Of a stretch of 61,888 nt of DNA, positions 1-61,888 are shown one piece after another. A model generated the notes under the pieces. It ran no database searches and had not been told where the DNA came from. It was given only the letters and a program-made list of their open reading frames with translations. Position 1 is the stretch's first letter. Each line of letters starts with the position of its first letter. Location of the stretch: the IMG/VR virus record IMGVR_UViG_3300029675_000009, positions 1 through 61,888 of that record. One strand, written 5' to 3'. The translations under genes and the position numbers were made by a program. This DNA is from a virus.

Positions 1-158
1 CGCCTTTTACGTGTATTTTTACGTGCAGTAACAAAAACAGCCCTGACAATCAGCAGATTACCAAGGCTGTTGTGGAGATGGAGAGACCATAACTTATACT
101 GTCATACATTATCAAACAATATCATATGCGCTCATGTTCAACGATTTCATGTGTTTTT
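1..158. repeat. Terminal direct repeat, copy 1 (identical to 61731..61888)
   Basis: Manual comparison shows nt 1-158 equal the last 158 nt. Contains two TTTTACGTG motifs at 5-13 and 17-25. Confidence 0.95.
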
Positions 159-5638: not shown

Positions 5639-5920
5639 ATGGAGAATATAGCGGATTTACCGGCAACACAAGTAACGGCGGGGCAGCTGGCCGACTTGAT
5701 CATAGAGAGGCTTGGGATTAACAAGGAGGCCAAGGATAAGCCTAAATACGTAAGGGGCCTTGAGTCATTGGCTAAAACGCTCCAAGTAAGCCCGGCGACA
5801 ATCGCCAGATACAAAAAGAGAGGAGTGTTTGGTGACGCTATAAAACAAAACGGGAAATACATCTTGGTGGATATCCAACTCGCCCAAGAGCGTTTCCTTG
5901 GCAAAGGCAAGAAGAAATAA
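5639..5920 (+). CDS. HTH DNA-binding protein (excisionase/MerR-like)
   Basis: 93 aa. The segment LAKTLQVSPATIARYKKRGVF is a typical short HTH. Confidence 0.55.
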   Translation: MENIADLPATQVTAGQLADLIIERLGINKEAKDKPKYVRGLESLAKTLQVSPATIARYKKRGVFGDAIKQNGKYILVDIQLAQERFLGKGKKK

Positions 5921-6061
5921 CATCCCGGATGTCCCTAGGCCTTATCGCACCTGTGGCGCTAGGGATGTCCGGACCTACTTATAAGGCCCCTACCCGTCTA
6001 CGATTCGGGTTCGAAACCGTTGGAGGTTGTGGGGGAGCAAACACTTTTAAATAATAACAAC

Positions 6062-6412
6062 ATGAATGAGATTTATTGGATCACAAGGTTAGATGCCATA
6101 CAGACGTTGGCAATAATAGCAGTATTTATCTTGGGAATATTAGCTTCCATATATATTGTCATATGGTTTATTGAAGATGATTTTGAAAACGATTCCAAGT
6201 TTAAGAACATGGCTATCAAATGTGCCGCCTATATATCAATCCCCATTTTTTTACTGGTGTTCATCCCGTCTAAAAGGGATATGCTGATGATCATTGGAAT
6301 AGGCGGAACTATAGAATATCTCAAGTCTAACGATACCGCCAAGAAGTTGCCAGATAAGGTAATCATGGCAATCGATAAGTTATTGGATGATACAATAGAA
6401 GAAGAAAAATGA
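6062..6412 (+). CDS. Small membrane protein (two predicted TM segments)
   Basis: ORF 6020..6412, with ATG at 6062 (MNEIYW). Hydrophobic stretches are LAIIAVFILGILASIYIVIWF and AAYISIPIFLLVFIP. Confidence 0.6.
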   Translation: MNEIYWITRLDAIQTLAIIAVFILGILASIYIVIWFIEDDFENDSKFKNMAIKCAAYISIPIFLLVFIPSKRDMLMIIGIGGTIEYLKSNDTAKKLPDKVIMAIDKLLDDTIEEEK

Positions 6413-7402: not shown

Positions 7403-8277
7403 TGAAGACATTCGAGGAATTAAAGAAGGATCTGCTTGAACGGGCTAAAAAACATAACGCTTGTCAAGATGGATACAGGATGGGGTTAAACGCAAAAAGC
7501 AAACAAGATTTGCTGAAAGCAATAACCAATAATTGGTATTGGGTCTTGAGTGCATCCAAGATGATTGACGCAAATTACCTAGAAAATAACTTTTCTGAAG
7601 AGGAATTAGCCGAAGCCGGTATTTACACAAGAAAAGAACACACCTCTAATGCTAAATCATTTGCTTGCGGCTCTGCCACGGTCGAGGCTTACGGCTCTGC
7701 CACGGTCGAGGCTTACGGCTCTGCCACGGTCGAGGCTTACGGCTCTGCCAAGGTCGAGGCTTACGGCTCTGCCACGGTCAAGGCTTACGGCTCTGCCACG
7801 GTCAAGGCTTACGGCTCTGCCAAGGTCGAGGCTTACGACTCTGCCACGGTCAAGGCTTACGGCTCTGCCAAGGTCGAGGCTTACGACTCTGCCACGGTCA
7901 AGGCTTACGACTCTGCCACGGTCGAGGCTTGCGGCTCTGCCACGGTCGAGGCTTGCGACTCTGCCAAGGTCGAGGCTTACGACTCTGCCAAGGTCGAGGC
8001 TTGCGGCTCTGCCACGGTCAAGGCTTACGACTCTGCCACGGTCGAGGCTTACGACTCTGCCACGGTCAAGGCTTACGACTCTGCCACGGTCGAGGCTTAC
8101 GACTCTGCCAAGGTCGAGGCTTACGGCTCTGCCACGGTCAAGGCTTACGATAACTCATATGTTGAGGATTGCACAGGGAACATAAATACAGTTTCCGATC
8201 ATGGAATAGTCAAAGATTACTACAATCATAAGATATATATAAAGAAAGGAAAATTCGAGATTATTGAGATCGAATAA
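7402..8277 (+). CDS. Tandem octapeptide-repeat protein (89-aa N-terminal domain plus 20 x [G/D]SA[T/K]V[E/K]A[Y/C])
   Basis: ORF track, 291 aa. The other two frames over the repeats are also open, which is a repeat artefact. Confidence 0.8.
   Translation: MKTFEELKKDLLERAKKHNACQDGYRMGLNAKSKQDLLKAITNNWYWVLSASKMIDANYLENNFSEEELAEAGIYTRKEHTSNAKSFACGSATVEAYGSATVEAYGSATVEAYGSAKVEAYGSATVKAYGSATVKAYGSAKVEAYDSATVKAYGSAKVEAYDSATVKAYDSATVEACGSATVEACDSAKVEAYDSAKVEACGSATVKAYDSATVEAYDSATVKAYDSATVEAYDSAKVEAYGSATVKAYDNSYVEDCTGNINTVSDHGIVKDYYNHKIYIKKGKFEIIEIE
7669..8148 (+). repeat. 20 tandem copies of a 24-nt unit (GGCTCTGCCACGGTCGAGGCTTAC and variants)
   Basis: Counted by hand. Only four nucleotide positions per unit vary, and each has two states: gGc/gAc, aCg/aAg, Gag/Aag, tAc/tGc. 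Confidence 0.95.
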
Positions 8278-8281
8278 ATTC

Positions 8282-8349
8282 AATGCCTTAGCTTATCGGT
8301 AGAGCGCCCCTAACATGGGGATGGCCGGGTTCGACTCCCGGAGGCTCAC
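8282..8349 (+). pseudogene. Degenerate tRNA-like element
   Basis: It has U8, a good D arm (GCTT-ATCGGTA-GAGC) and a canonical T arm (CCGGG-TTCGACT-CCCGG). The acceptor pairs only 4 bp, and the anticodon stem CCCC/GGGG closes a 6-nt loop. Confidence 0.4.
8325..8346 (+). repeat. 22-nt tRNA 3'-half direct repeat, copy 1 (CCGGGTTCGACTCCCGGAGGCT)
   Basis: Identical to 8620-8641. Confidence 0.9.
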
Positions 8350-8361
8350 AAATCAAGATAT

Positions 8362-8484
8362 ATGAGAGACATCTACATCAAAGACCCCGACGGAGATTAC
8401 GAGTACGACGGGGAGGAAGACAACGAGGAATATGAGGAGAGCATGGAGGAACTTAGGTTCCTATGTGATTCATATAATTGGTAA
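8362..8484 (+). CDS. Possible small acidic protein (40 aa)
   Basis: The ATG-started ORF reads MRDIYIKDPDGDYEYDGEEDNEEYEESMEELRFLCDSYNW. It is below the ORF-track cutoff and lies between the two 22-nt repeats. Confidence 0.3.
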   Translation: MRDIYIKDPDGDYEYDGEEDNEEYEESMEELRFLCDSYNW

Positions 8485-8619: not shown

Positions 8620-8641
8620 CCGGGTTCGACTCCCGGAGGCT
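8620..8641 (+). repeat. 22-nt tRNA 3'-half direct repeat, copy 2
   Basis: Identical to 8325-8346. No matching 5' acceptor strand was found upstream. Confidence 0.9.
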
Positions 8642-8664
8642 GACGAATTTAAATACAAGACAAC

Positions 8665-12811: not shown

Positions 12812-12888
12812 GGTATCGTGGGTCTAATGGTAAGACCACTCCGCCAAAAGACGGAGAGATGCAGATTCGAATCCTGCCGATACCACCA
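12812..12888 (+). tRNA. tRNA with a non-canonical 8-nt anticodon loop (CCAAAAGA) and encoded CCA; anticodon undetermined
   Basis: The acceptor is GGTATCG/CGATACC. The D arm is GGTC-TAATGGTAA-GACC. The anticodon stem is CTCCG/CGGAG. The T arm is GCAGA-TTCGAAT-CCTGC, with an A-C mismatch at positions 53:61. The discriminator is A, followed by CCA. Confidence 0.7.
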
Positions 12889-13773: not shown

Positions 13774-13980
13774 TTTGTTTGGCATTTTTAATTTGAGTTG
13801 TATCTTTGCGGTGATTCAAGACCAAGGAATCACTACATAGTAAACTTGTATGCGGCATTTTTTATGTCGTTACTACAGCTATACCTGCAAAGATATAAGC
13901 CGTTGGTTTCCCTGTTGGCTGCATCAGTTTATCTAATGTAGTGTTCCTTGGTCGGAGTTGGGAGCCAGCGGCTTTCTTTA
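13774..13980 (+). promoter_or_regulatory. Promoter plus structured leader, cassette 1 (P1 long-range helix, P2 terminator-like helix)
   Basis: TTTG is at 13778-13781 and TATCTTTG at 13801-13808. P1 pairs 13820-13838 with 13936-13953. P2 pairs 13897-13911 with 13960-13974 and is followed by a U-rich tract. Confidence 0.6.
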
Positions 13981-14001
13981 TATAACTCAAATTTCATCAA
14001 A

Positions 14002-14232
14002 ATGACCAAGGAACATGAAATTGCGAGTGTAACGAACAACAGTAATTGCACAACCACGTCAGCTCACGAAACGAGCATCTTCTCATGGCGCACAATCGCC
14101 AAGCTATTAACCTTCATATCATCCGGATTGCTCGAATGCGATAACCGGGATGATGTTATAGGCTATGTAAAGGTTCTCATCTTATTAATGACAGCTTTCA
14201 TATTAGCAGGAATGGAAGGAGGTGCGTTATGA
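14002..14232 (+). CDS. Small C-terminally TM-anchored protein (paralog of 22552..22770)
   Basis: ORF 13948..14232, with the likely start at ATG 14002 (MTKEHE). It shares FSWR..AK...G..EC..DD.GYVK.LILL..AF..AGME.GGA with the paralog. Confidence 0.6.
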   Translation: MTKEHEIASVTNNSNCTTTSAHETSIFSWRTIAKLLTFISSGLLECDNRDDVIGYVKVLILLMTAFILAGMEGGAL

Positions 14233-22032: not shown

Positions 22033-22329
22033 ATGGAAAGAAATATTGATAAGAGACAGACGGTAGAAGAAGCGGCTCATTTCTTCGCTGAAAGCAGGAG
22101 TAGCGGTAGTGCATTCCCGGCGTATTATCAGGGATTTATAGCAGGTGCCGAATGGGGAATGGCAGAAGCTATTAATGCTCACTGGAAAAGTTGTCCAAAC
22201 CTCTCTAAAGACAATGATCGAATGTGCAATCAAATGAATGATTGCAATCAGAATTGCGAGTACATGAGGTCTTTTATTAGACTATTAAGAGGAATAGTAT
22301 TAACCGAGCCTTCCCGTGAAGGCTCTTAA
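22033..22329 (+). CDS. Hypothetical protein
   Basis: ORF track, 98 aa. Confidence 0.5.
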   Translation: MERNIDKRQTVEEAAHFFAESRSSGSAFPAYYQGFIAGAEWGMAEAINAHWKSCPNLSKDNDRMCNQMNDCNQNCEYMRSFIRLLRGIVLTEPSREGS

Positions 22330-22352
22330 TTAAAAAGATATGAAAATATCGC

Positions 22353-22530
22353 TTGCTTTTCCAGGAAAATTCGTAAGTTTGCGGCGCGAAGATTACACAT
22401 AGGCACCGCAAGCGAGTGGTCCAGTAGAGAATGAGAGAAGTATAAGCAGCTCCCATAATCCGTTCATGTATCTCTACGATATGTGTGGTCTTCGCAAACT
22501 AGGATTATGAGGGGTTGCTCTTTTTTTTTA
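22353..22530 (+). promoter_or_regulatory. Promoter plus structured leader, cassette 2 (P1, then a P2 terminator with U9)
   Basis: TAAGTTTG is at 22374-22381. P1 pairs 22386-22401 with 22480-22495. P2 pairs 22445-22461 with 22502-22519 and is followed by C plus T9 (22521-22529). Confidence 0.65.
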
Positions 22531-22551
22531 TTCATCTAATGCGAAGACCAG

Positions 22552-22770
22552 ATGAAGCAAACGATTCAAGCCACCGGTACGCCCGTACCTGTGTCCGTAA
22601 GAGCCGGAAAGTTCTTTTCGTGGCGAAATGTCGCCAAAGTGTTTAACGTATTACCGTTCGGTGTATGCGAGTGTGAAAGCGTTGACGATGCCAAGGGCTA
22701 TGTCAAGGCGTTGATCTTACTGATATTCGCATTCCTTATAGCTGGGATGGAGAAAGGAGGTGCGCAATGA
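22552..22770 (+). CDS. Small C-terminally TM-anchored protein (paralog of 14002..14232)
   Basis: ORF track, 72 aa. The C-terminal segment is GYVKALILLIFAFLIAGMEKGGAQ. Confidence 0.6.
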   Translation: MKQTIQATGTPVPVSVRAGKFFSWRNVAKVFNVLPFGVCECESVDDAKGYVKALILLIFAFLIAGMEKGGAQ

Positions 22771-22976
22771 TCGATAAGATTCATTTCGACCTGTCTGGTC
22801 TTGATGATTTCTTTTCCAAGGTCATCACTCCGGATGAGTTATGAGAGTCTTTAATAGACCTGCTGTTTAATTACTCCATGACCATGAATGAGGAACGTTC
22901 CGAGACTTTCAAGGATGATGTCGGGACAATATATCTACTTTACAGCGAGTTAAGAAAATTAAAATCAATCAGTTAA
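22767..22976 (+). CDS. 70-codon reading frame interrupted by one in-frame TGA (22842-22844)
   Basis: MIDKIHFDLSGLDDFFSKVITPDEL-TGA-ESLIDLLFNYSMTMNEERSETFKDDVGTIYLLYSELRKLKSIS is in the same frame throughout. ATG 22767 overlaps the upstream stop. Confidence 0.3.
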
Positions 22977-23075
22977 ATCATTAATCACTTTGTAAAAGGG
23001 GGGGCGTTTTACCGCCCCTCACTGTAAATCAGCGTTAAAAATTATTTTGTCAGAAATTTAAAAGACTTACGTATT

Positions 23076-23870
23076 ATGAAAGGAATCGAAATATTCAAGA
23101 ACGATCTTTTCGGTGAAATTAGAGTAGCCGGGACAAGTGATAACCCCTTATTCTGCTTGGCGGACATATGCAAGGCGGTCGAGATAACGAATAGCAGAAA
23201 CGTGAAGAACAGGTTAGATGAAGAGGACGTCCATCTGGTGGACACCCCTACTACCGGCGGTATGCAATCGATGGTCTACGTATCAGAAGCCGGGATGTAT
23301 GATGCGGTATTAAAAAGCGATAGTCCAAAAGCTAGACCTTTCTCTCGTTGGATAACACACGAGGTTCTCCCCTCAATCCGCAAGACCGGAGGTTACATGG
23401 TCGCCAAACCGGAGGATACCCCGGAGGAGATCATGGCACGAGCATTGACCATAGCGCAAGCCACTCTATTAAGGAAAGAGGAACGGCTAAAAACGCTTGA
23501 GATCGAGAATGAGCATAAACAGGCCACGATAGAGCTGCAAGCGCAAGAGTTAAGGATATCCGCGCCAAAAGCGGAATACTGCGACAAGGTTCTTTCATCC
23601 AAGGGTTATCTCACGGTTAACATGATAGCCTCATGCCTAGGTATTTCCGATATCAAATTGAACAAGCTGCTTTGCGAGTGGGGCGTGCAATACAAGGAAA
23701 GCGGCACATACTTTCTTTACTCTAAATACAGGGACAAGGGGTTTACCTTTCACAAGCCACATCCATATACGGATAGCAACGGCGAGATAAAGACACGCCA
23801 GCATATGTATTGGACGGAGGCCGGGAAGAAGTTCATCCTTGATTTGTATAACCTTAAAATTTCAGCCTAA
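23076..23870 (+). CDS. Antirepressor (BRO-N domain plus KilAC-type C-terminal domain)
   Basis: The BRO-N pattern is FGEIRVAGTSDNPLFCLADICKAVEI...ARPFSRWITHEVLPSIRKTGGY. The C-terminal segment is YLTVNMIASCLGIS. Confidence 0.85.
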   Translation: MKGIEIFKNDLFGEIRVAGTSDNPLFCLADICKAVEITNSRNVKNRLDEEDVHLVDTPTTGGMQSMVYVSEAGMYDAVLKSDSPKARPFSRWITHEVLPSIRKTGGYMVAKPEDTPEEIMARALTIAQATLLRKEERLKTLEIENEHKQATIELQAQELRISAPKAEYCDKVLSSKGYLTVNMIASCLGISDIKLNKLLCEWGVQYKESGTYFLYSKYRDKGFTFHKPHPYTDSNGEIKTRQHMYWTEAGKKFILDLYNLKISA

Positions 23871-31595: not shown

Positions 31596-31988
31596 TTATA
31601 AAACCACTATGCTCTCCTCCTCTCTCGCCGCCTCCCACTCGGCGAAATCGCTATCCACACGGTCTTTCAACGCCTTCCTCTCGTTAAGGAACGTCTTATA
31701 AGACTCCACGTATGACAAGTCCAATATGCCTAGCTGGGCGGCGTTGTAGTCGTTCAGCTTCTTTTGCTCCACGTCCTTGTCCCATAGGGCGTTGATACAG
31801 GCCTCCAATATCTTGTTGGCAGTTAACGTGGCCCATATCCTGACCTCGTTGTAACTATAGGAGATCACGGGGGCCATATCGTCACCCATCTCCCTTGTCT
31901 CCTCTCTAACGTCCCACCGGTACAGGTAGGAACCGTCACCGTCCCGCTCTATTTTAGGCGGCATTGTGTCGCTCCATGATCGCTTCAT
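31596..31988 (-). CDS. Hypothetical protein
   Basis: ORF track, 130 aa. It overlaps the RT 3' end by 35 nt. Confidence 0.5.
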   Translation of the reverse strand: MKRSWSDTMPPKIERDGDGSYLYRWDVREETREMGDDMAPVISYSYNEVRIWATLTANKILEACINALWDKDVEQKKLNDYNAAQLGILDLSYVESYKTFLNERKALKDRVDSDFAEWEAAREEESIVVL

Positions 31989-32991
31989 AAAACTCTGGTT
32001 TTAAAATTTTCTTAGCTAAATGCTTGCTATCGCTATCATATATCCAGCCCAGCCAACCGGCTAGACCTGCCTTGTATTCCGTTAAGGATATATTCGGGAC
32101 TTTATTCAATCTAGCCGCCGCACGACATAGATTTTGCTTAGTCCTCTTCCTTATCCGTATATGCTCCTTATAGAAAACGAACCCCACGAAATCTATACCA
32201 CGGCCGCTTTTATCCGATCTTCTCTCAGCGATCTTAAATATCTGGTAATTCCCTTTCAGCTCCAACTTCAACACGGCCAATCTATCGATAAGCCACGGAA
32301 GTAATACGTTTCTCAAGAAACACTTATCATGATGGAAAAAAGTCATGTCATCCGCGTATCTGATATAATGCCTTATATCTATAATCTCCTTTATCTCGTG
32401 ATCCAGATAGGCGAGATAAAGATTCGCAAGATATTGGCTAAGATAGTTCCCGATCGGAACGCCGGGAGCGGAATCAATGATCTCATCCAACAACATAAGC
32501 AAGCGATCGTCCTTGATCTTCTTCCGAGCGATGCCTTTCAACACCTCATGGTCTATTGACGGATAGAATTTGCGGATATCAACCTTGAGGCAATAGACGG
32601 ATTCACGATCGGACAAAGCCCGTCTTGTCCTCTTATACGCCTCCGTTATTCCTCTTCCCTTGATACATGATGTCGTATCAGCCGTGAACACGGAAACCCA
32701 TATAGGTTCCATGACGTTCATTATGGCATGATGCAATATCCTGTCCGGATAATAAGGGAGCTTGAAGATGATCCTTTCTTTTGGCTCATAGATGGTATCA
32801 GTCCGGTACTTGGAAGTCTTGAACGTGCCATCCAGCAGAGACCTTAGCAAACGGCTTAGATTACCTTCTTTGTCCTTGTCAAACAACCTTATGCCGTATG
32901 AATCCTTCTTTCCCCTTCGGGCTTTCATGTCCGCAAGTATCAAGTTGTCCATATTCGCTATCTTATCAAATAAATTCCCTATTCTCTTCAT
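31954..32991 (-). CDS. DGR reverse transcriptase
   Basis: ORF 31954..33048, with the likely start at ATG 32991 (MKRIGNLF). Motifs are PIGNYLSQ ([ILV]GxxxSQ) and YIRYADDMTFF (YxDD). The TR lies immediately upstream. Confidence 0.9.
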   Translation of the reverse strand: MKRIGNLFDKIANMDNLILADMKARRGKKDSYGIRLFDKDKEGNLSRLLRSLLDGTFKTSKYRTDTIYEPKERIIFKLPYYPDRILHHAIMNVMEPIWVSVFTADTTSCIKGRGITEAYKRTRRALSDRESVYCLKVDIRKFYPSIDHEVLKGIARKKIKDDRLLMLLDEIIDSAPGVPIGNYLSQYLANLYLAYLDHEIKEIIDIRHYIRYADDMTFFHHDKCFLRNVLLPWLIDRLAVLKLELKGNYQIFKIAERRSDKSGRGIDFVGFVFYKEHIRIRKRTKQNLCRAAARLNKVPNISLTEYKAGLAGWLGWIYDSDSKHLAKKILKPEFYEAIMERHNAA

Positions 32992-33128
32992 TTTATTGTC
33001 ATTAATTTGCTTTTTATCATAGGGAGTCTTCGGTTTCCCTACCAACACCCTTTATATGGGGAGACTTTTTTCGCCAAGAGGCGAGGCCACCATCCCTGTT
33101 TGTTCTCTAAATATCTTTTCCCCTCTCT

Positions 33129-33245
33129 AAAAGTATAGGCGTGAACCGATGTTACGATTCGCATCGGAAGGCGCATTATTCGTATTCACGTTAGCGAGGC
33201 CTGCATTCGACCTGTTGTCCGCGTTACCGCCAACCAGCACCACCT
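33129..33245 (-). other. DGR template repeat (TR)
   Basis: It aligns without gaps to 33692..33808. All 16 mismatches fall at TR adenines on the coding strand. It lies 137 nt upstream of the RT start. Confidence 0.9.
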
Positions 33246-33268
33246 AGGGATGATCGACCCTTATTACG

Positions 33269-33622
33269 TCATTCGAGATAATACCTGTTCCCGGAGGCTC
33301 GCATCGTTACTTTCCTAGGGAACTTGTCCATCTCCTTTATCTTTCCAAGAACGTACTTGATCTCTTGGGAGTTCGTAAAGAATTTCTTGGCATCACTATC
33401 CTTATCCTCTAGATTCTCCTTGATCATGACAAGCGCCCTGTCTTTCCCGAACTTGGTGGACACGCCATCCATGTAATCAATTACCCAGAACGTGAGATTC
33501 GTCAACTTCTGTTGGGTGATCTCCGGACAATTAAAATGCCTTGAGTTCTTATCCCTTGGGATATTCAAGAACGACAAGCTGCCGTCATCTTTATTCTTTT
33601 CTTCTTCCATTTTTATCCTCAT
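33269..33622 (-). CDS. DGR accessory-position ORF (not recognisably Avd-like)
   Basis: 117 aa between VR and TR, where Avd normally sits. The sequence does not resemble the helical-bundle Avd proteins I recall. Confidence 0.55.
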   Translation of the reverse strand: MRIKMEEEKNKDDGSLSFLNIPRDKNSRHFNCPEITQQKLTNLTFWVIDYMDGVSTKFGKDRALVMIKENLEDKDSDAKKFFTNSQEIKYVLGKIKEMDKFPRKVTMRASGNRYYLE

Positions 33623-33662
33623 TAAACGTTATACAAAAAAATTCCCGACGTGAGACGTGCGG

Positions 33663-35819
33663 CTATGCCGACGTTTTACGATATTCGGGGAAAAAGCAAA
33701 GGCGCGAACCGAAGTAACGATACGCAGCGGAAGGCGCATTATACGTATACACGTGAGCGAGGCCCGCAGTCGACCCGTCGCCCGCGTAACCGCCAACCAG
33801 CACCACCTGCATGCGGTTAGCCGATGTGTAGGTGTAGTAGTAGTCGCACCAGTAGGTAGAACTACTACCGCCGATCTCCGTAGCTACGATATCACCATCC
33901 TCACCTAGGAGCATCTTCTTGGCATAACCATTGGTACGGCAGATGTTGCCTTTCTTGTTATAGCCTGTGTAAGATGTATCGCTGAAGTTTGACGGGTCAT
34001 CGGTAGTCCATAAGATAGACAATCCGGAATCACCCGTGGTGACTTGTATGTTGGCCCCATCGGTGTATTTCCAGATATGGCCGAACGGATTCTCTATACC
34101 ACGATACCTGTTAGCCATCAATGTGGCATGAGTACCGCCGGAAGCGTTCTTCACCACATATGCCTTCTCTCCCGAGCCGTTCCCGAACTCGTTGGTATAG
34201 CCGCATGGGATAAGGGGGTTGGCGTTGTTGAAGTTAGCCCAATCCGTCATTTGCGTCGGTCCCGGACCTAAGCCACCTTGTGCGAAACCGTTAGCGTCCT
34301 TCTGGGCGTTGAAAGGTTTCTGGCTGTCCAGCGTGGCGTACTCGACGGCGAATAACCAGAACAGGATCTTGTGGGCGTTATAGGTGTACATTTCCCAGCC
34401 GCTGCCACGTTTCCTAGCGGCTTGCCGGAATTGGTCTCGGGTGAGGTTGGTGACGGGGCGGCCGAGTAGGGAACGGTAGGTATCATCCCATTCAGCGGTG
34501 TTGTCACCACCTCTAAAATTAGTTGAATTAGGATCACTTAATTTACTAGCTCCAGCCGCCGAACATAATAAATTATCGGTTCTATACATTCTGGCTTCAT
34601 ATGTTGAGATATAGAACTTATCTACATGTTTATACCCAGGTAATGGAATTTCGGACAACATCTTCCTAAATTTAGTGCCATTAAAATACAATTTATACCA
34701 ATGTTCAGGTATCTCTGTCATAACGGCATAATCCAAATAGCTTCCACCCCATGAAAGCTCATTATCCAAATATTCTTTAACTCCACCATCTCTATCCAAA
34801 AGACACCTTCTCATCTTACTCTGCACCGGCAACTCCCGATGTAGTTGCATATTACCCACACGCTTCCCGTCCGGGCTTGACGATGCCATGTCCCACTCTA
34901 CACCGTAGGCGTACCGCTCCTCTATATCCGGGATGTCCTCCCAAGCGGGGGTCCACTCGGTGGAGATGTCACCATATTCAAGTTTAATCTTATGGATGGT
35001 GGAAGTTGATGTGCCAGTTTTAGGAGAACTAAATACAACCATATGTGTATTATCAGCTACTGCATCTCCGATATTAGTAATCCATTTAAAAGTCTTACTG
35101 GCCTTCCCATTCACAAAGTCAGCCTTACTGAACTGAGCCATAGAACCTACTGCACCAGTAGAGTTATATATAGTGAACATTTCCTTATCATCACCCAATT
35201 CTCCAAAAATAGTCAATGTTACTTGTGTTCCTTTAGATATCGGTTCAGTTAGCCAATAATCAGCGATATTGTAATTCGAGTTACTCACCTCCTTCCCTGA
35301 TCCCAGCAACAGGTTCCTGCCGTACACGGGCAGCTTGCGGTACTTGCCATCAGCCATCAGAGACTTATCCTTGTCCCCCTTGGTCTCCAGCGTTATCGAC
35401 ACGTCCGGATCTTCGTTTTGGGCCTTGTCCGGCGTTATGGTTATCTGGCCGTTAGACGGGGTGGATGTGACAACGGGCTTTAACTTATTAACGTCCGTCC
35501 TTAGACCGGTGACCAGATTCCGGATATCCGTATCGTCGTAATGGTCACGCAAGTTAGGCGTGGTTATGGTTCCCTCAGCGGAGGTTATCTCCAAGACGTA
35601 TTCCGTGTCCGTGTTAGTCTTTATCCTCACCTTGATGTCTTGCATCATCAATGGAAGCTCGGCGTACGTATGGATACCGTCCGAGAACTTCATGTTTAAA
35701 TTGCCGTTCGCCAACCGCTCGAAAAGCCATAGCGACGGCGGGTATATGGTGCTGTCAGCCGTCCACTCGGCGGTGGACTGCTCTATCTGTTGGTATACGT
35801 AAGCCCCTGTCTTGCTCAT
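33663..35819 (-). CDS. DGR target: tail fibre / receptor-binding protein with a C-terminal VR (CLec/FGE-like fold expected)
   Basis: 718 aa. The N terminus STAEWTADSTIYPPSLWLFERLANGNLNMKFSDGIHTYAELP resembles a fibre/Mtd-type N-domain. The C terminus GGYAGDGSTAGLAHVYTYNAPSAAYRYFGSRLCF is encoded by the VR. Confidence 0.85.
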   Translation of the reverse strand: MSKTGAYVYQQIEQSTAEWTADSTIYPPSLWLFERLANGNLNMKFSDGIHTYAELPLMMQDIKVRIKTNTDTEYVLEITSAEGTITTPNLRDHYDDTDIRNLVTGLRTDVNKLKPVVTSTPSNGQITITPDKAQNEDPDVSITLETKGDKDKSLMADGKYRKLPVYGRNLLLGSGKEVSNSNYNIADYWLTEPISKGTQVTLTIFGELGDDKEMFTIYNSTGAVGSMAQFSKADFVNGKASKTFKWITNIGDAVADNTHMVVFSSPKTGTSTSTIHKIKLEYGDISTEWTPAWEDIPDIEERYAYGVEWDMASSSPDGKRVGNMQLHRELPVQSKMRRCLLDRDGGVKEYLDNELSWGGSYLDYAVMTEIPEHWYKLYFNGTKFRKMLSEIPLPGYKHVDKFYISTYEARMYRTDNLLCSAAGASKLSDPNSTNFRGGDNTAEWDDTYRSLLGRPVTNLTRDQFRQAARKRGSGWEMYTYNAHKILFWLFAVEYATLDSQKPFNAQKDANGFAQGGLGPGPTQMTDWANFNNANPLIPCGYTNEFGNGSGEKAYVVKNASGGTHATLMANRYRGIENPFGHIWKYTDGANIQVTTGDSGLSILWTTDDPSNFSDTSYTGYNKKGNICRTNGYAKKMLLGEDGDIVATEIGGSSSTYWCDYYYTYTSANRMQVVLVGGYAGDGSTAGLAHVYTYNAPSAAYRYFGSRLCFFPEYRKTSA
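33692..33808 (-). other. DGR variable repeat (VR)
   Basis: It lies at the 3' end of the 718-aa gene and ends 26 nt before the stop codon. Confidence 0.9.
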
Positions 35820-61730: not shown

Positions 61731-61888
61731 CGCCTTTTACGTGTATTTTTACGTGCAGTAACAAAAACAGCCCTGACAATCAGCAGATTACCAAGGCTGT
61801 TGTGGAGATGGAGAGACCATAACTTATACTGTCATACATTATCAAACAATATCATATGCGCTCATGTTCAACGATTTCATGTGTTTTT
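61731..61888. repeat. Terminal direct repeat, copy 2
   Basis: Identical to nt 1-158. Confidence 0.95.

Follow-up and report, generated by a model that had tools for sequence, protein, structure and literature searches.

The stretch of DNA analysed here, called the window throughout, is the whole of the viral IMG/VR record IMGVR_UViG_3300029675_000009 (61,888 nucleotides, nt), and the element that concerns us is a compact non-coding leader of about 170 nt, cassette 2, which occupies positions 22374-22554 ahead of an open reading frame (ORF) of 72 amino acids (aa) that in turn precedes the gene for an Ant antirepressor. Taking its sequence together with those of its relatives, we consider it likely that cassette 2 is an immunity cassette of the c4/CI type, in which the antisense RNA lies on the same strand as its target, here built on a different scaffold and equipped with an intrinsic terminator that is gated by RNA. 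The c4/CI-type triad is present, namely one antisense element with same-strand copies of its target upstream (a1) and downstream (a2), the latter at the start of the first ORF. The co-variation of its three elements across about 20 specificities is the signature of c4 from phage P1 and CI from phage P4, RNA immunity switches on which the activation of lytic genes depends; an earlier note on this DNA had missed it. The note had recognised a non-coding leader that is structured and has a promoter and a terminator hairpin of its own, upstream of a small ORF and Ant (Bro-N and KilAC domains), and this description stands; the positions and pairings that it gave for the promoter, the helices P1 and P2, the U9 tract and a2 are likewise all correct on the window sequence. 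The single seed, the longer a1 pairing, the fold-gated terminator and the Bacteroidales hosts lead us to regard cassette 2 as a probable new structural version of the c4/CI logic. Positions refer to the plus strand unless stated, and P1 without the word phage denotes the helix.

Co-variation of the antisense seed and its two targets

The first 16 nt of the leader are a1 (GCGAAGATTACACATA, 22386-22401), which is both the 5' copy of the target and the 5' arm of P1. The antisense element (TATGTGTGGTCTTCGC, 22480-22495) is the 3' arm of P1 and is complementary to a1 over 16 nt and, perfectly, to a2 over 10 nt. Its seed, TGGTCTTCGC (22486-22495), is the exact reverse complement of a2, the target GCGAAGACCA (22541-22550), which is unique as a 10-mer within the 61.9-kb window and is followed by a G and then by the ATG at 22552.

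Relatives of the cassette came from protein-guided scans with the small-ORF family, which gave 50 IMG/VR loci and 56 metagenome loci, and from a DNA pattern taken from the top of P2, which gave 65 further viral contigs and one Parabacteroides metagenome-assembled genome (MAG). Among species-representative genomes the protein-guided scan found no locus and the DNA-pattern scan found one, the same Parabacteroides MAG. From about 100 gut-phage contigs, 44 distinct extended sequences were obtained (an earlier set held 15), and unless stated otherwise our comparisons refer to these. A covariance model built from the cassette-2 RNA, R1, retrieves all cassette-2-type relatives at 108-156 bits and, in the window, matches only 22386-22527 (136 bits). 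BLAST against deposited phages found only Bacteroides phage BF1-TP2, which shares neighbouring genes without cassette 2, and a search of that genome with R1 returned no cassette-2-type RNA. The earlier note had named a lack of conservation in relatives as grounds for abandoning its reading; the cassette turns out to be conserved.

Across the 44 relatives, a1, the antisense element and a2 vary in concert, with 29 distinct a2 strings and about 20 seeds. In the window, GCGAAGA in a1 is answered by TCTTCGC in the antisense element and repeated as GCGAAGA in a2, and the equivalent triplets are GTCACA, TGTGAC and GTCACA in L006, GCAACACT, AGTGTTGC and GCAACACT in L017, and GTCAGAG, CTCTGAC and GTCAGAG in L109. 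Alignment-free duplex matrices give cognate antisense:a2 duplexes of -17.1 to -23.6 kcal/mol (mean -20.5), compared with a non-cognate mean of -10.6 (standard deviation 4.2), and cognate antisense:a1 duplexes with a mean of -26.1 kcal/mol, compared with -14.7 (standard deviation 4.5) for non-cognate pairs. In strength, the cognate duplex ranks first or nearly so in 44/44 sequences for a2 and in 43/44 for a1, and the pairing with a1 (16-20 bp) is longer than that with a2 (10-13 bp). Judged from these comparisons, the complementarity of P1, P2 and a2 is kept through compensatory changes in the relatives and is not a product of chance. A seed that varies between related phages while its complementarity is kept is what hetero-immunity would call for, and at the level of sequence this is what we find. 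The co-varying antisense:a2 pairing is also consistent with the translational masking that the earlier note had suggested.

The switching elements are the most variable positions of the cassette-2 RNA. We considered a small-molecule riboswitch and rejected it, since no Rfam aptamer gave a credible match (AdoCbl-II reached 17.9 bits within a coding region, against a gathering score of 36.5) and since the switching elements are the most variable positions and not a conserved core.

The single exception to the concerted variation is a natural chimera (L001/L003/L112, 4388-4529), which joins an a1 and linker of the GCTACAAC class to an antisense element and a2 of the class found in the window; the a1 duplex of this chimera reaches only -14.2 kcal/mol and its P3 helix, described below, is weak. 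Two further arrangements were seen among the relatives. In the metagenome contig L051 (1260-1500) unrelated sequence stands in for the 5' half of the RNA, from a1 to hairpin H3, and what is retained is the antisense element together with the P2 3' arm and a2. Elsewhere, two or three cassette-2-type RNAs with different seeds stand in tandem arrays (L016:2020-2503, L060:1013-1503, L064, L140, L151 and L154), each RNA with the small ORF behind it, complete or truncated.

Two mutually exclusive folds

The leader region outfolds 200/200 dinucleotide shuffles (z = -3.3). Helix P1 pairs 22386-22401 with 22480-22495 (16 bp including 2 G-U), and helix P2, the terminator stem, pairs its 5' arm AGCAGCTCCCATAATCC (22445-22461) with its 3' arm GGATTATGAGGGGTTGCT (22502-22519) in 17 bp with 2 G-U and one bulge (A22510). 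C22520 and the U9 tract (22521-22529; T6-T9 in relatives) follow as the tail of an intrinsic terminator, the stem of which is retained in 38 distinct sequences. A generic terminator scan did not list P2 because its loop, at 40 nt, is atypical. The P1 3' arm sits inside the P2 loop, so that the two helices interleave.

The remaining helices sort P1 and P2 into two folds. State A consists of P1, hairpin H1 (22402-22422), helix P3 and the anti-terminator hairpin (AT), and state B of H1, hairpin H3 and P2. P3, found by RNAalifold, joins GTAGAGA (22424-22430) to TCTCTAC (22471-22477), and the 5' arm of AT (22431-22437, in the AATGAGAG region) pairs with CTCCCAT (22450-22456), which lies within the P2 5' arm. 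H3 (CATGTATC / GATATGTG, 22465-22485) lies in the P2 loop and pairs 22465-22472 with 22478-22485, with the P3 3' arm falling in its loop and 5' arm. H3 cannot coexist with P1 and P3 because it overlaps the 3' arms of both, and AT excludes P2 because it occupies the P2 5' arm. State A masks the antisense seed and the P2 5' arm; state B exposes the seed in the P2 loop.

Both folds are supported by compensatory changes. With 15 sequences RNAalifold picks P1, H1 and P3 and not the terminator, with 17 compensatory pairs, and constrained folding adds AT to this fold. State A as a whole has 87% of cells paired and 19 compensatory pairs, a result matched by 0/500 shuffles, and slid controls reach 30-50%. 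Within it, P1 has 91% of cells paired and compensatory changes at 10/16 pairs, and P3 is found in 44/44 sequences in at least 12 sequence versions. AT was judged by per-sequence folding because the column-based count (70% paired) is unreliable; it too is found in 44/44 sequences, as two co-varying types, AUGAGAG/CUCCCAU and AUAGAA/UUCUAU, which also match the P2 3' arm. State B has 97.5% of cells paired in the 15 sequences and 97.1% in 38 distinct ones, with 9-12 compensatory pairs and again 0/500 shuffles matching it. Here P2 contributes 98% of cells paired and 4 compensatory pairs in the 38 distinct sequences, counted from better and model-fitted alignments (in the initial one a subfamily had slipped out of register), and H3 contributes 96% and 3 compensatory pairs. 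H1, shared by both folds, has 95-97% of cells paired and compensatory changes at 4-5 of its 7 pairs. RNAalifold also proposed that the GCGGC next to the promoter pairs with the P2 3' arm, a helix that we set aside because GCGGC is probably upstream of the transcription start.

In the energy model the two folds are nearly equal, at -47.2 (state A) and -43.1 kcal/mol (state B) for the window, -39.1 and -43.2 for L006, and -42.7 and -42.5 for L017. Partition-function calculations give P1 a mean probability of 0.90 at the nascent stage that immediately precedes synthesis of the P2 3' arm, above 0.5 in 44/44 sequences. The free full-length RNA is split, with P1 above 0.5 in 31 and P2 above 0.5 in 12 of the 44 sequences. 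When a1 is blocked in silico, the mean probability of P2 rises from 0.28 to 0.97, and P2 forms in 43/44 sequences. For the window sequence, the nested-structure model takes this probability from 0.00 in the free RNA to 1.00 with a1 blocked.

The U9 terminator is, on these calculations, predicted to be conditional, and this changes how several proposals of the earlier note are to be read. Its "textbook terminator" is borne out by the 17-bp stem followed by C and U9, and must be qualified by the competing fold with P3 and AT. Its interleaving of P1 and P2 is right insofar as the P1 3' arm lies in the P2 loop, and does not extend to their coexistence, as P3, AT and H3 place P1 in a fold that prevents P2. 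A terminated RNA of about 140 nt as the default product is not a given, with the modelled P2 probability of the window at 0.00 when a1 is free. Attenuation-type control, which the note had also raised, is consistent with two co-varying and mutually exclusive folds.

A further possible hairpin, CATCT...AGATG (22534-22554), is predicted by RNAalifold with a2 in its loop and the start codon paired; there is no covariation for or against it because its sequence is invariant.

Promoter

The -7 box TAAGTTTG (22374-22381) fits the Bacteroides pattern TAnnTTTG and is followed by CGGCG (conserved as CGGYG). At 22352-22356, 21 nt 5' of this box, lies a -33-like element, CTTGC here and TTTGC in close relatives, which is kept in the relatives and which, from the Bacteroides promoter consensus, we take to be part of the promoter. 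The core TTCGTAWGTTTGCGGYG is common to cassettes 1, 2 and 3 of this phage and is retained in the 44 relatives; the number of promoter motifs alone is not significant (3 observed, 1.6 expected). Transcription would, from the promoter consensus, start at about 22385-22387.

Downstream genes

The 72-aa leader ORF (22552-22770) has a hydrophobic C-terminal segment and no Pfam or PHROG match. Its family is narrow, comprising 39 protein clusters from Bacteroidales phages and prophages in which the hydrophobic segment is conserved, and a paralog with 42% identity stands behind cassette 1. A 25-aa ORF (22767-22844), conserved in close relatives, has its ATG overlapping the leader-ORF stop (ATGA) and would be translationally coupled to it. 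The gene for Ant (23076-23870; Bro-N, PF02498, and KilAC, PF03374; PHROG 130, E = 3e-69) begins after about 300 nt. By its layout, then, cassette 2 appears to use a short leader ORF to gate an operon of the kind that serves an antirepressor or replication, in its own case Ant. The placement of the cassette is modular, with at least seven different and unrelated first ORFs behind this class of RNA.

Two observations concern G+C-rich hairpins in this region. One, GGGGGGCGttttaCCGCCCC (22998-23027), lies without a T tract between the small ORFs and the ant start. In Parabacteroides-type prophages (L048-L050 and L082-L104), homologs of the small ORF (MYLSLGKQ...) have no cassette and only a G+C-rich hairpin upstream.

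Sister cassettes

The phage carries three such cassettes, which are mutually orthogonal, with no cross-pairing between them; by layout, one would gate replication genes, one Ant and one a Rha/KilAC protein. Cassette 1 (13801-14018) has the same architecture, with the seed CCAAGGAAC and an a1 pairing of 28 bp, and is followed by the paralogous small ORF, an 85-aa ORF, a Lin1244_N replication-initiation protein and a DnaB-like helicase. Cassette 1, like cassette 2, has no relevant Rfam match, either at gathering scores or at E <= 10. The alignment of cassette-1-type leaders by MAFFT and RNAalifold was too poor to use, and they were therefore analysed through alignment-free duplex matrices, which show four seeds with cognate a2 duplexes of -17.5 to -25.5 and a1 duplexes of -34 to -40.

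Cassette 3 (46696-46897), ahead of a Rha and KilAC gene, contains a bona fide Rfam c4-2 RNA (46796-46871, 45.1 bits). In this RNA the complement of CTTGTAAgacTTAGAC occurs twice, as GTCTAAATTTTACAAG on the upstream side and as GTCTAAAATTTACAAG immediately ahead of the ATG, and near-identical 16-nt target copies lie at 46708-46723 and 46879-94. Cassette 3 is laid out as the a1b1 / a'b' / a2b2 of phage P1 c4. It is this c4-2 layout that leads us to read the "P1 5' arm" of cassette 2 as an a1-type element and GCGAAGACCA as an a2-type target. Cassette 3 also gives a partial RAGATH-36 match (24.6 bits, under the gathering score of 70), and a hairpin with T6 was observed at about 46737-46760, between a1b1 and the c4-2 RNA.

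Searching 400 nt with the R1 model gave an end-to-end alignment to cassette 1 that scored 20 bits (E ~1e-4), and the c4-2 cassette 3 aligned at 15 bits (E ~1e-3); these matches suggest a shared plan, an outer terminator stem round a hairpin and a 3' seed, and do not amount to proof of homology. Weak full-length R1 matches (19-24 bits) also occur about 850 nt 3' of cassette-1-type leaders, at L010:3289-3392, L025:3300-3403 and L107:6880-6984, and may represent another related RNA. The last of these contigs, L107, is BF1-TP2 (PQ571263.1), a cultured, temperate phage of B. fragilis, which carries a cassette-1-type RNA at 5826-6040 with the seed GCCAAGTCC; its deposited gp11 coding sequence (5898-6254) crosses this RNA, and the real small ORF runs from about 6026.

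Proposed mechanism and its difficulties

How might these parts work together? In state A, P1, P3 and AT would block the terminator, mask the seed and leave a2 free. Transcripts in this state would be read through, the 72-aa ORF would be translatable, and the coupled genes through to Ant could follow. A seed-bearing RNA, either the terminated transcript or an a1-free fragment cut out of the leader as happens in c4 and CI, would then pair in trans with a1 of nascent leaders, releasing the lock so that P2 can form and transcription stop at the U tract. On mRNA that has already been read through, the same RNA would pair with a2 and block initiation at the leader ORF, and with it the production of Ant. 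If the seed sequence sets the specificity, then hetero-immunity would be expected of relatives whose seeds differ. The steps that we infer are termination, processing, the action in trans and the direction of the regulation, taken here as negative.

A number of points weigh against this account. The start site, termination at U9 and any processed species are deduced from the sequence. An unprocessed terminated RNA holds a1 in cis and would mask its own seed, and the free window RNA is predicted to adopt state A, so that an active trans RNA is unexplained without processing. The a2 duplex is only 10-13 bp long, and Bacteroidales, to our knowledge, lack Hfq and ProQ. The AT hairpin is weak (-4.6 to -9.1 kcal/mol), and nested-structure folding programs cannot score a P1/P2 pseudoknot. 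The chimera L001/L003/L112, with its non-matching a1, implies that a matching a1 is not strictly needed for a cassette to persist, and in distant relatives the cassette precedes genes other than Ant. Finally, the region 22250-22650 gives no match to the Rfam models C4 (RF01695), c4-2 (RF02944; clan CL00128) or IsrK (RF01394) even at E <= 10, and homology to these RNAs is therefore unproven.

Alternative explanations

The same parts could be read with the opposite sign, as an activator resembling IsrK of Gifsy-1, in which the terminated RNA turns the operon on in trans, its free a1 tail capturing the antisense element of the long mRNA or competing for an inhibitory intramolecular helix, in either case releasing a2 and allowing translation of the leader ORF and Ant. 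The layout equals that of isrK-orf45-anrP, where the trans RNA does activate, and the terminated RNA has both a1 and the antisense element, which makes either polarity chemically possible. Yet the seed is perfectly complementary to, and co-varies with, 10 nt at the ATG, which is the geometry of an initiation repressor; a2 is already free in the read-through fold, leaving nothing to activate; and no match to the Rfam IsrK model was found. The seed's place over the start region, together with an a2 that the read-through fold leaves free, makes us rate activation below repression and regard it as unlikely. Less probable again is a static pseudoknot, with P1 and P2 formed together, a terminator that always fires, some other job for the RNA of about 140 nt, and a protein in the style of lambda Q to allow read-through. 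P1 and P2 share no nucleotides, loops of 43, 18 and 6 nt would sterically allow both on a geometric estimate, and U9 after a 17-bp stem is by sequence a strong terminator. Such a single fold nevertheless leaves P3 and AT unexplained, which co-vary and are incompatible with H3 and P2, respectively, and in a mechanism of the Q type the co-variation with a2 would have no role. The analogy with lambda PR'-tR' and 6S RNA drawn in the earlier note likewise implies a protein antiterminator; nothing points to one and no Q-like gene was seen near the cassette, although Q-like proteins were not searched for.

We would give similarly little credence to a system akin to type I toxin-antitoxins, in which the 72-aa ORF encodes a membrane toxin or an Icd-like cell-division inhibitor, the RNA is its antitoxin and control of Ant is incidental. 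The small size of the protein, its hydrophobic C-terminal segment conserved in 39 clusters, a seed that covers the ORF's initiation region and the paralogs behind two cassettes are all in keeping with it. Against this, the same class of RNA precedes at least seven unrelated first ORFs, the small ORF occurs without a cassette in L048-50 and L082-104, and the next ORF always overlaps its stop, suggesting a role in leading and coupling. The RNA is also in tandem with the ORF on the same strand, an arrangement that is not known for type I antitoxins. The toxin-antitoxin reading is compatible with the c4/CI-type explanation, and the two are not exclusive. That the region does nothing regulatory, being the ordinary terminator of an upstream operon followed by a promoter and fortuitous repeats, fits the promoter motif count, which is not above chance, and is in our judgement very improbable, given the dozens of compensatory changes that preserve the two folds and the two intermolecular-type pairings in about 100 contigs, and given that the promoter comes before the terminator.

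The c4/CI-type cassette with an RNA-gated terminator is, therefore, the explanation that we favour. It can be taken a step further, and here we are only tentative: cassette 2 might be an intrinsic terminator that senses RNA and takes its own product as the "ligand", with a1 as the lock that holds the anti-terminator fold and a seed-bearing RNA that frees it, causes termination and blocks the start codon, making a bistable, sequence-addressed switch. If this were so, a phage could carry several orthogonal copies, three in the present case, and the tandem arrays with different seeds could provide multi-specificity immunity or act as decoys against rival phages.

Implications

The workings of c4/CI-type immunity, which is RNA-based, were established in phages and plasmids of enterobacteria, and what we describe would be the same three-element logic on an unrelated scaffold. 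The setting is one of temperate phages of Bacteroides and Parabacteroides, dominant bacteria of the human gut in which next to nothing is known about the control of lysis and lysogeny. With the family come about 20 natural and apparently orthogonal sets of seed and target, in which a conditional terminator and a translational block would be combined in one element. It makes the purpose of the upstream target copy (a1b1 or seqA) open to test, and suggests a supply of ready-made orthogonal RNA switches for engineering Bacteroides. There is also a consequence for annotation, in that this RNA is absent from Rfam and that in BF1-TP2 the protein-coding annotation overruns the sister RNA.

Other features of the genome

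The ends of the window (1-158 and 61731-61888) are an exact 158-bp repeat, from which we take the window to be a complete phage genome of 61,730 bp, either circular or terminally redundant. A tRNA gene at 12812-12888 (+) scores 47.5 bits with Rfam and is assigned a four-base anticodon, "aaaa", by ARAGORN, and may be frameshift-suppressor-like or otherwise odd. What looks like a diversity-generating retroelement occupies 31954-33808 on the minus strand, with a reverse-transcriptase ORF (31954-33048), an RT-17 RNA (33003-33088) and two 117-nt repeats that are 86% identical (33129-33245 and 33692-33808). At 7543-8262 there are about 21 tandem copies of the 24-nt unit CGAGGCTTACGGCTCTGCCACGGT, probably an 8-residue protein repeat. 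Two copies of CCGGGTTCGACTCCCGGAGGCT, which resembles the T-arm and acceptor end of a tRNA, lie 295 nt apart at 8325-8365 and 8620-8660, where no tRNA was called.

Comparison with known systems

Of the known systems, c4-icd-ant of phages P1 and P7 offers a close parallel in layout. In phage P1, a1b1 lies upstream of c4, and a2b2 lies downstream over the start of an ORF of about 73 aa that precedes ant. Systems of the c4/CI class free their mature, trans-acting RNA from the leader by processing, through RNase P among others. Differences in the seed were reportedly linked to the hetero-immunity of P1 and P7 c4 by Citron and Schuster in 1990 and 1992. Pairing of the c4 RNA close to the ribosome-binding site is what blocks ant, and c4 is the basis of P1/P7 hetero-immunity (PMC12197685). 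As in cassette 2, the antisense RNA is on the strand of its target, behind the target's promoter and flanked by copies of the target, and the 72-aa leader ORF matches icd in position and size, a likeness that falls short of shown homology. The differences are also considerable. Where c4 uses two short blocks, a' and b', cassette 2 has one contiguous seed; its outer stem is an intrinsic terminator opposed by the co-varying fold of helices P1, P3 and AT; its a1 pairing (16-20 bp) exceeds its a2 pairing (10-13 bp); and its Bacteroidales host has other promoters and does without Shine-Dalgarno-led initiation.

The CI RNA of phage P4 is a processed leader RNA in which seqB is complementary to seqA upstream and seqC downstream, and premature termination keeps the replication operon off (PMC4825925). 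Occupying a1 of cassette 2 yields the terminator in silico, which in the model is the same logic as CI, and cassette 1 would by its layout gate replication genes as CI does. Termination in P4 is Rho-dependent, whereas the cassette 2 RNA has a canonical stem and U9 of its own. CI and cassette 2 resemble each other neither in sequence nor by covariance model, and in cassette 2, unlike CI, the a1:antisense helix belongs to a defined and co-varying alternative fold.

The terminator of cassette 2 has a likeness in the isrK-orf45-anrP region of Gifsy-1, where IsrK is a Rho-independent-terminated small RNA, partly read through into the small orf45 that is coupled to anrP, with two folds of the mRNA and action both in cis and in trans (PMC4825925). 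A terminator-bearing RNA, a small ORF and antirepressor downstream and two alternative folds are common to both; IsrK activates translation (PMC4825925), whereas the geometry of cassette 2 predicts repression. The constitutive-looking promoter followed by a nearby terminator that must be passed for downstream expression recalls lambda PR'-tR' and its 6S RNA, where passage depends on a protein and a DNA site; cassette 2 would need no protein, and its RNA triad is without a lambda counterpart. The sar RNA of P22 is transcribed from the opposite strand over the ant start and is fully complementary to it, unlike the cassette 2 RNA, which is on the same strand and has a short seed. Like the product we propose for cassette 2, sar is a small antisense RNA that stops translation initiation of an antirepressor, ant (PMC12197685).

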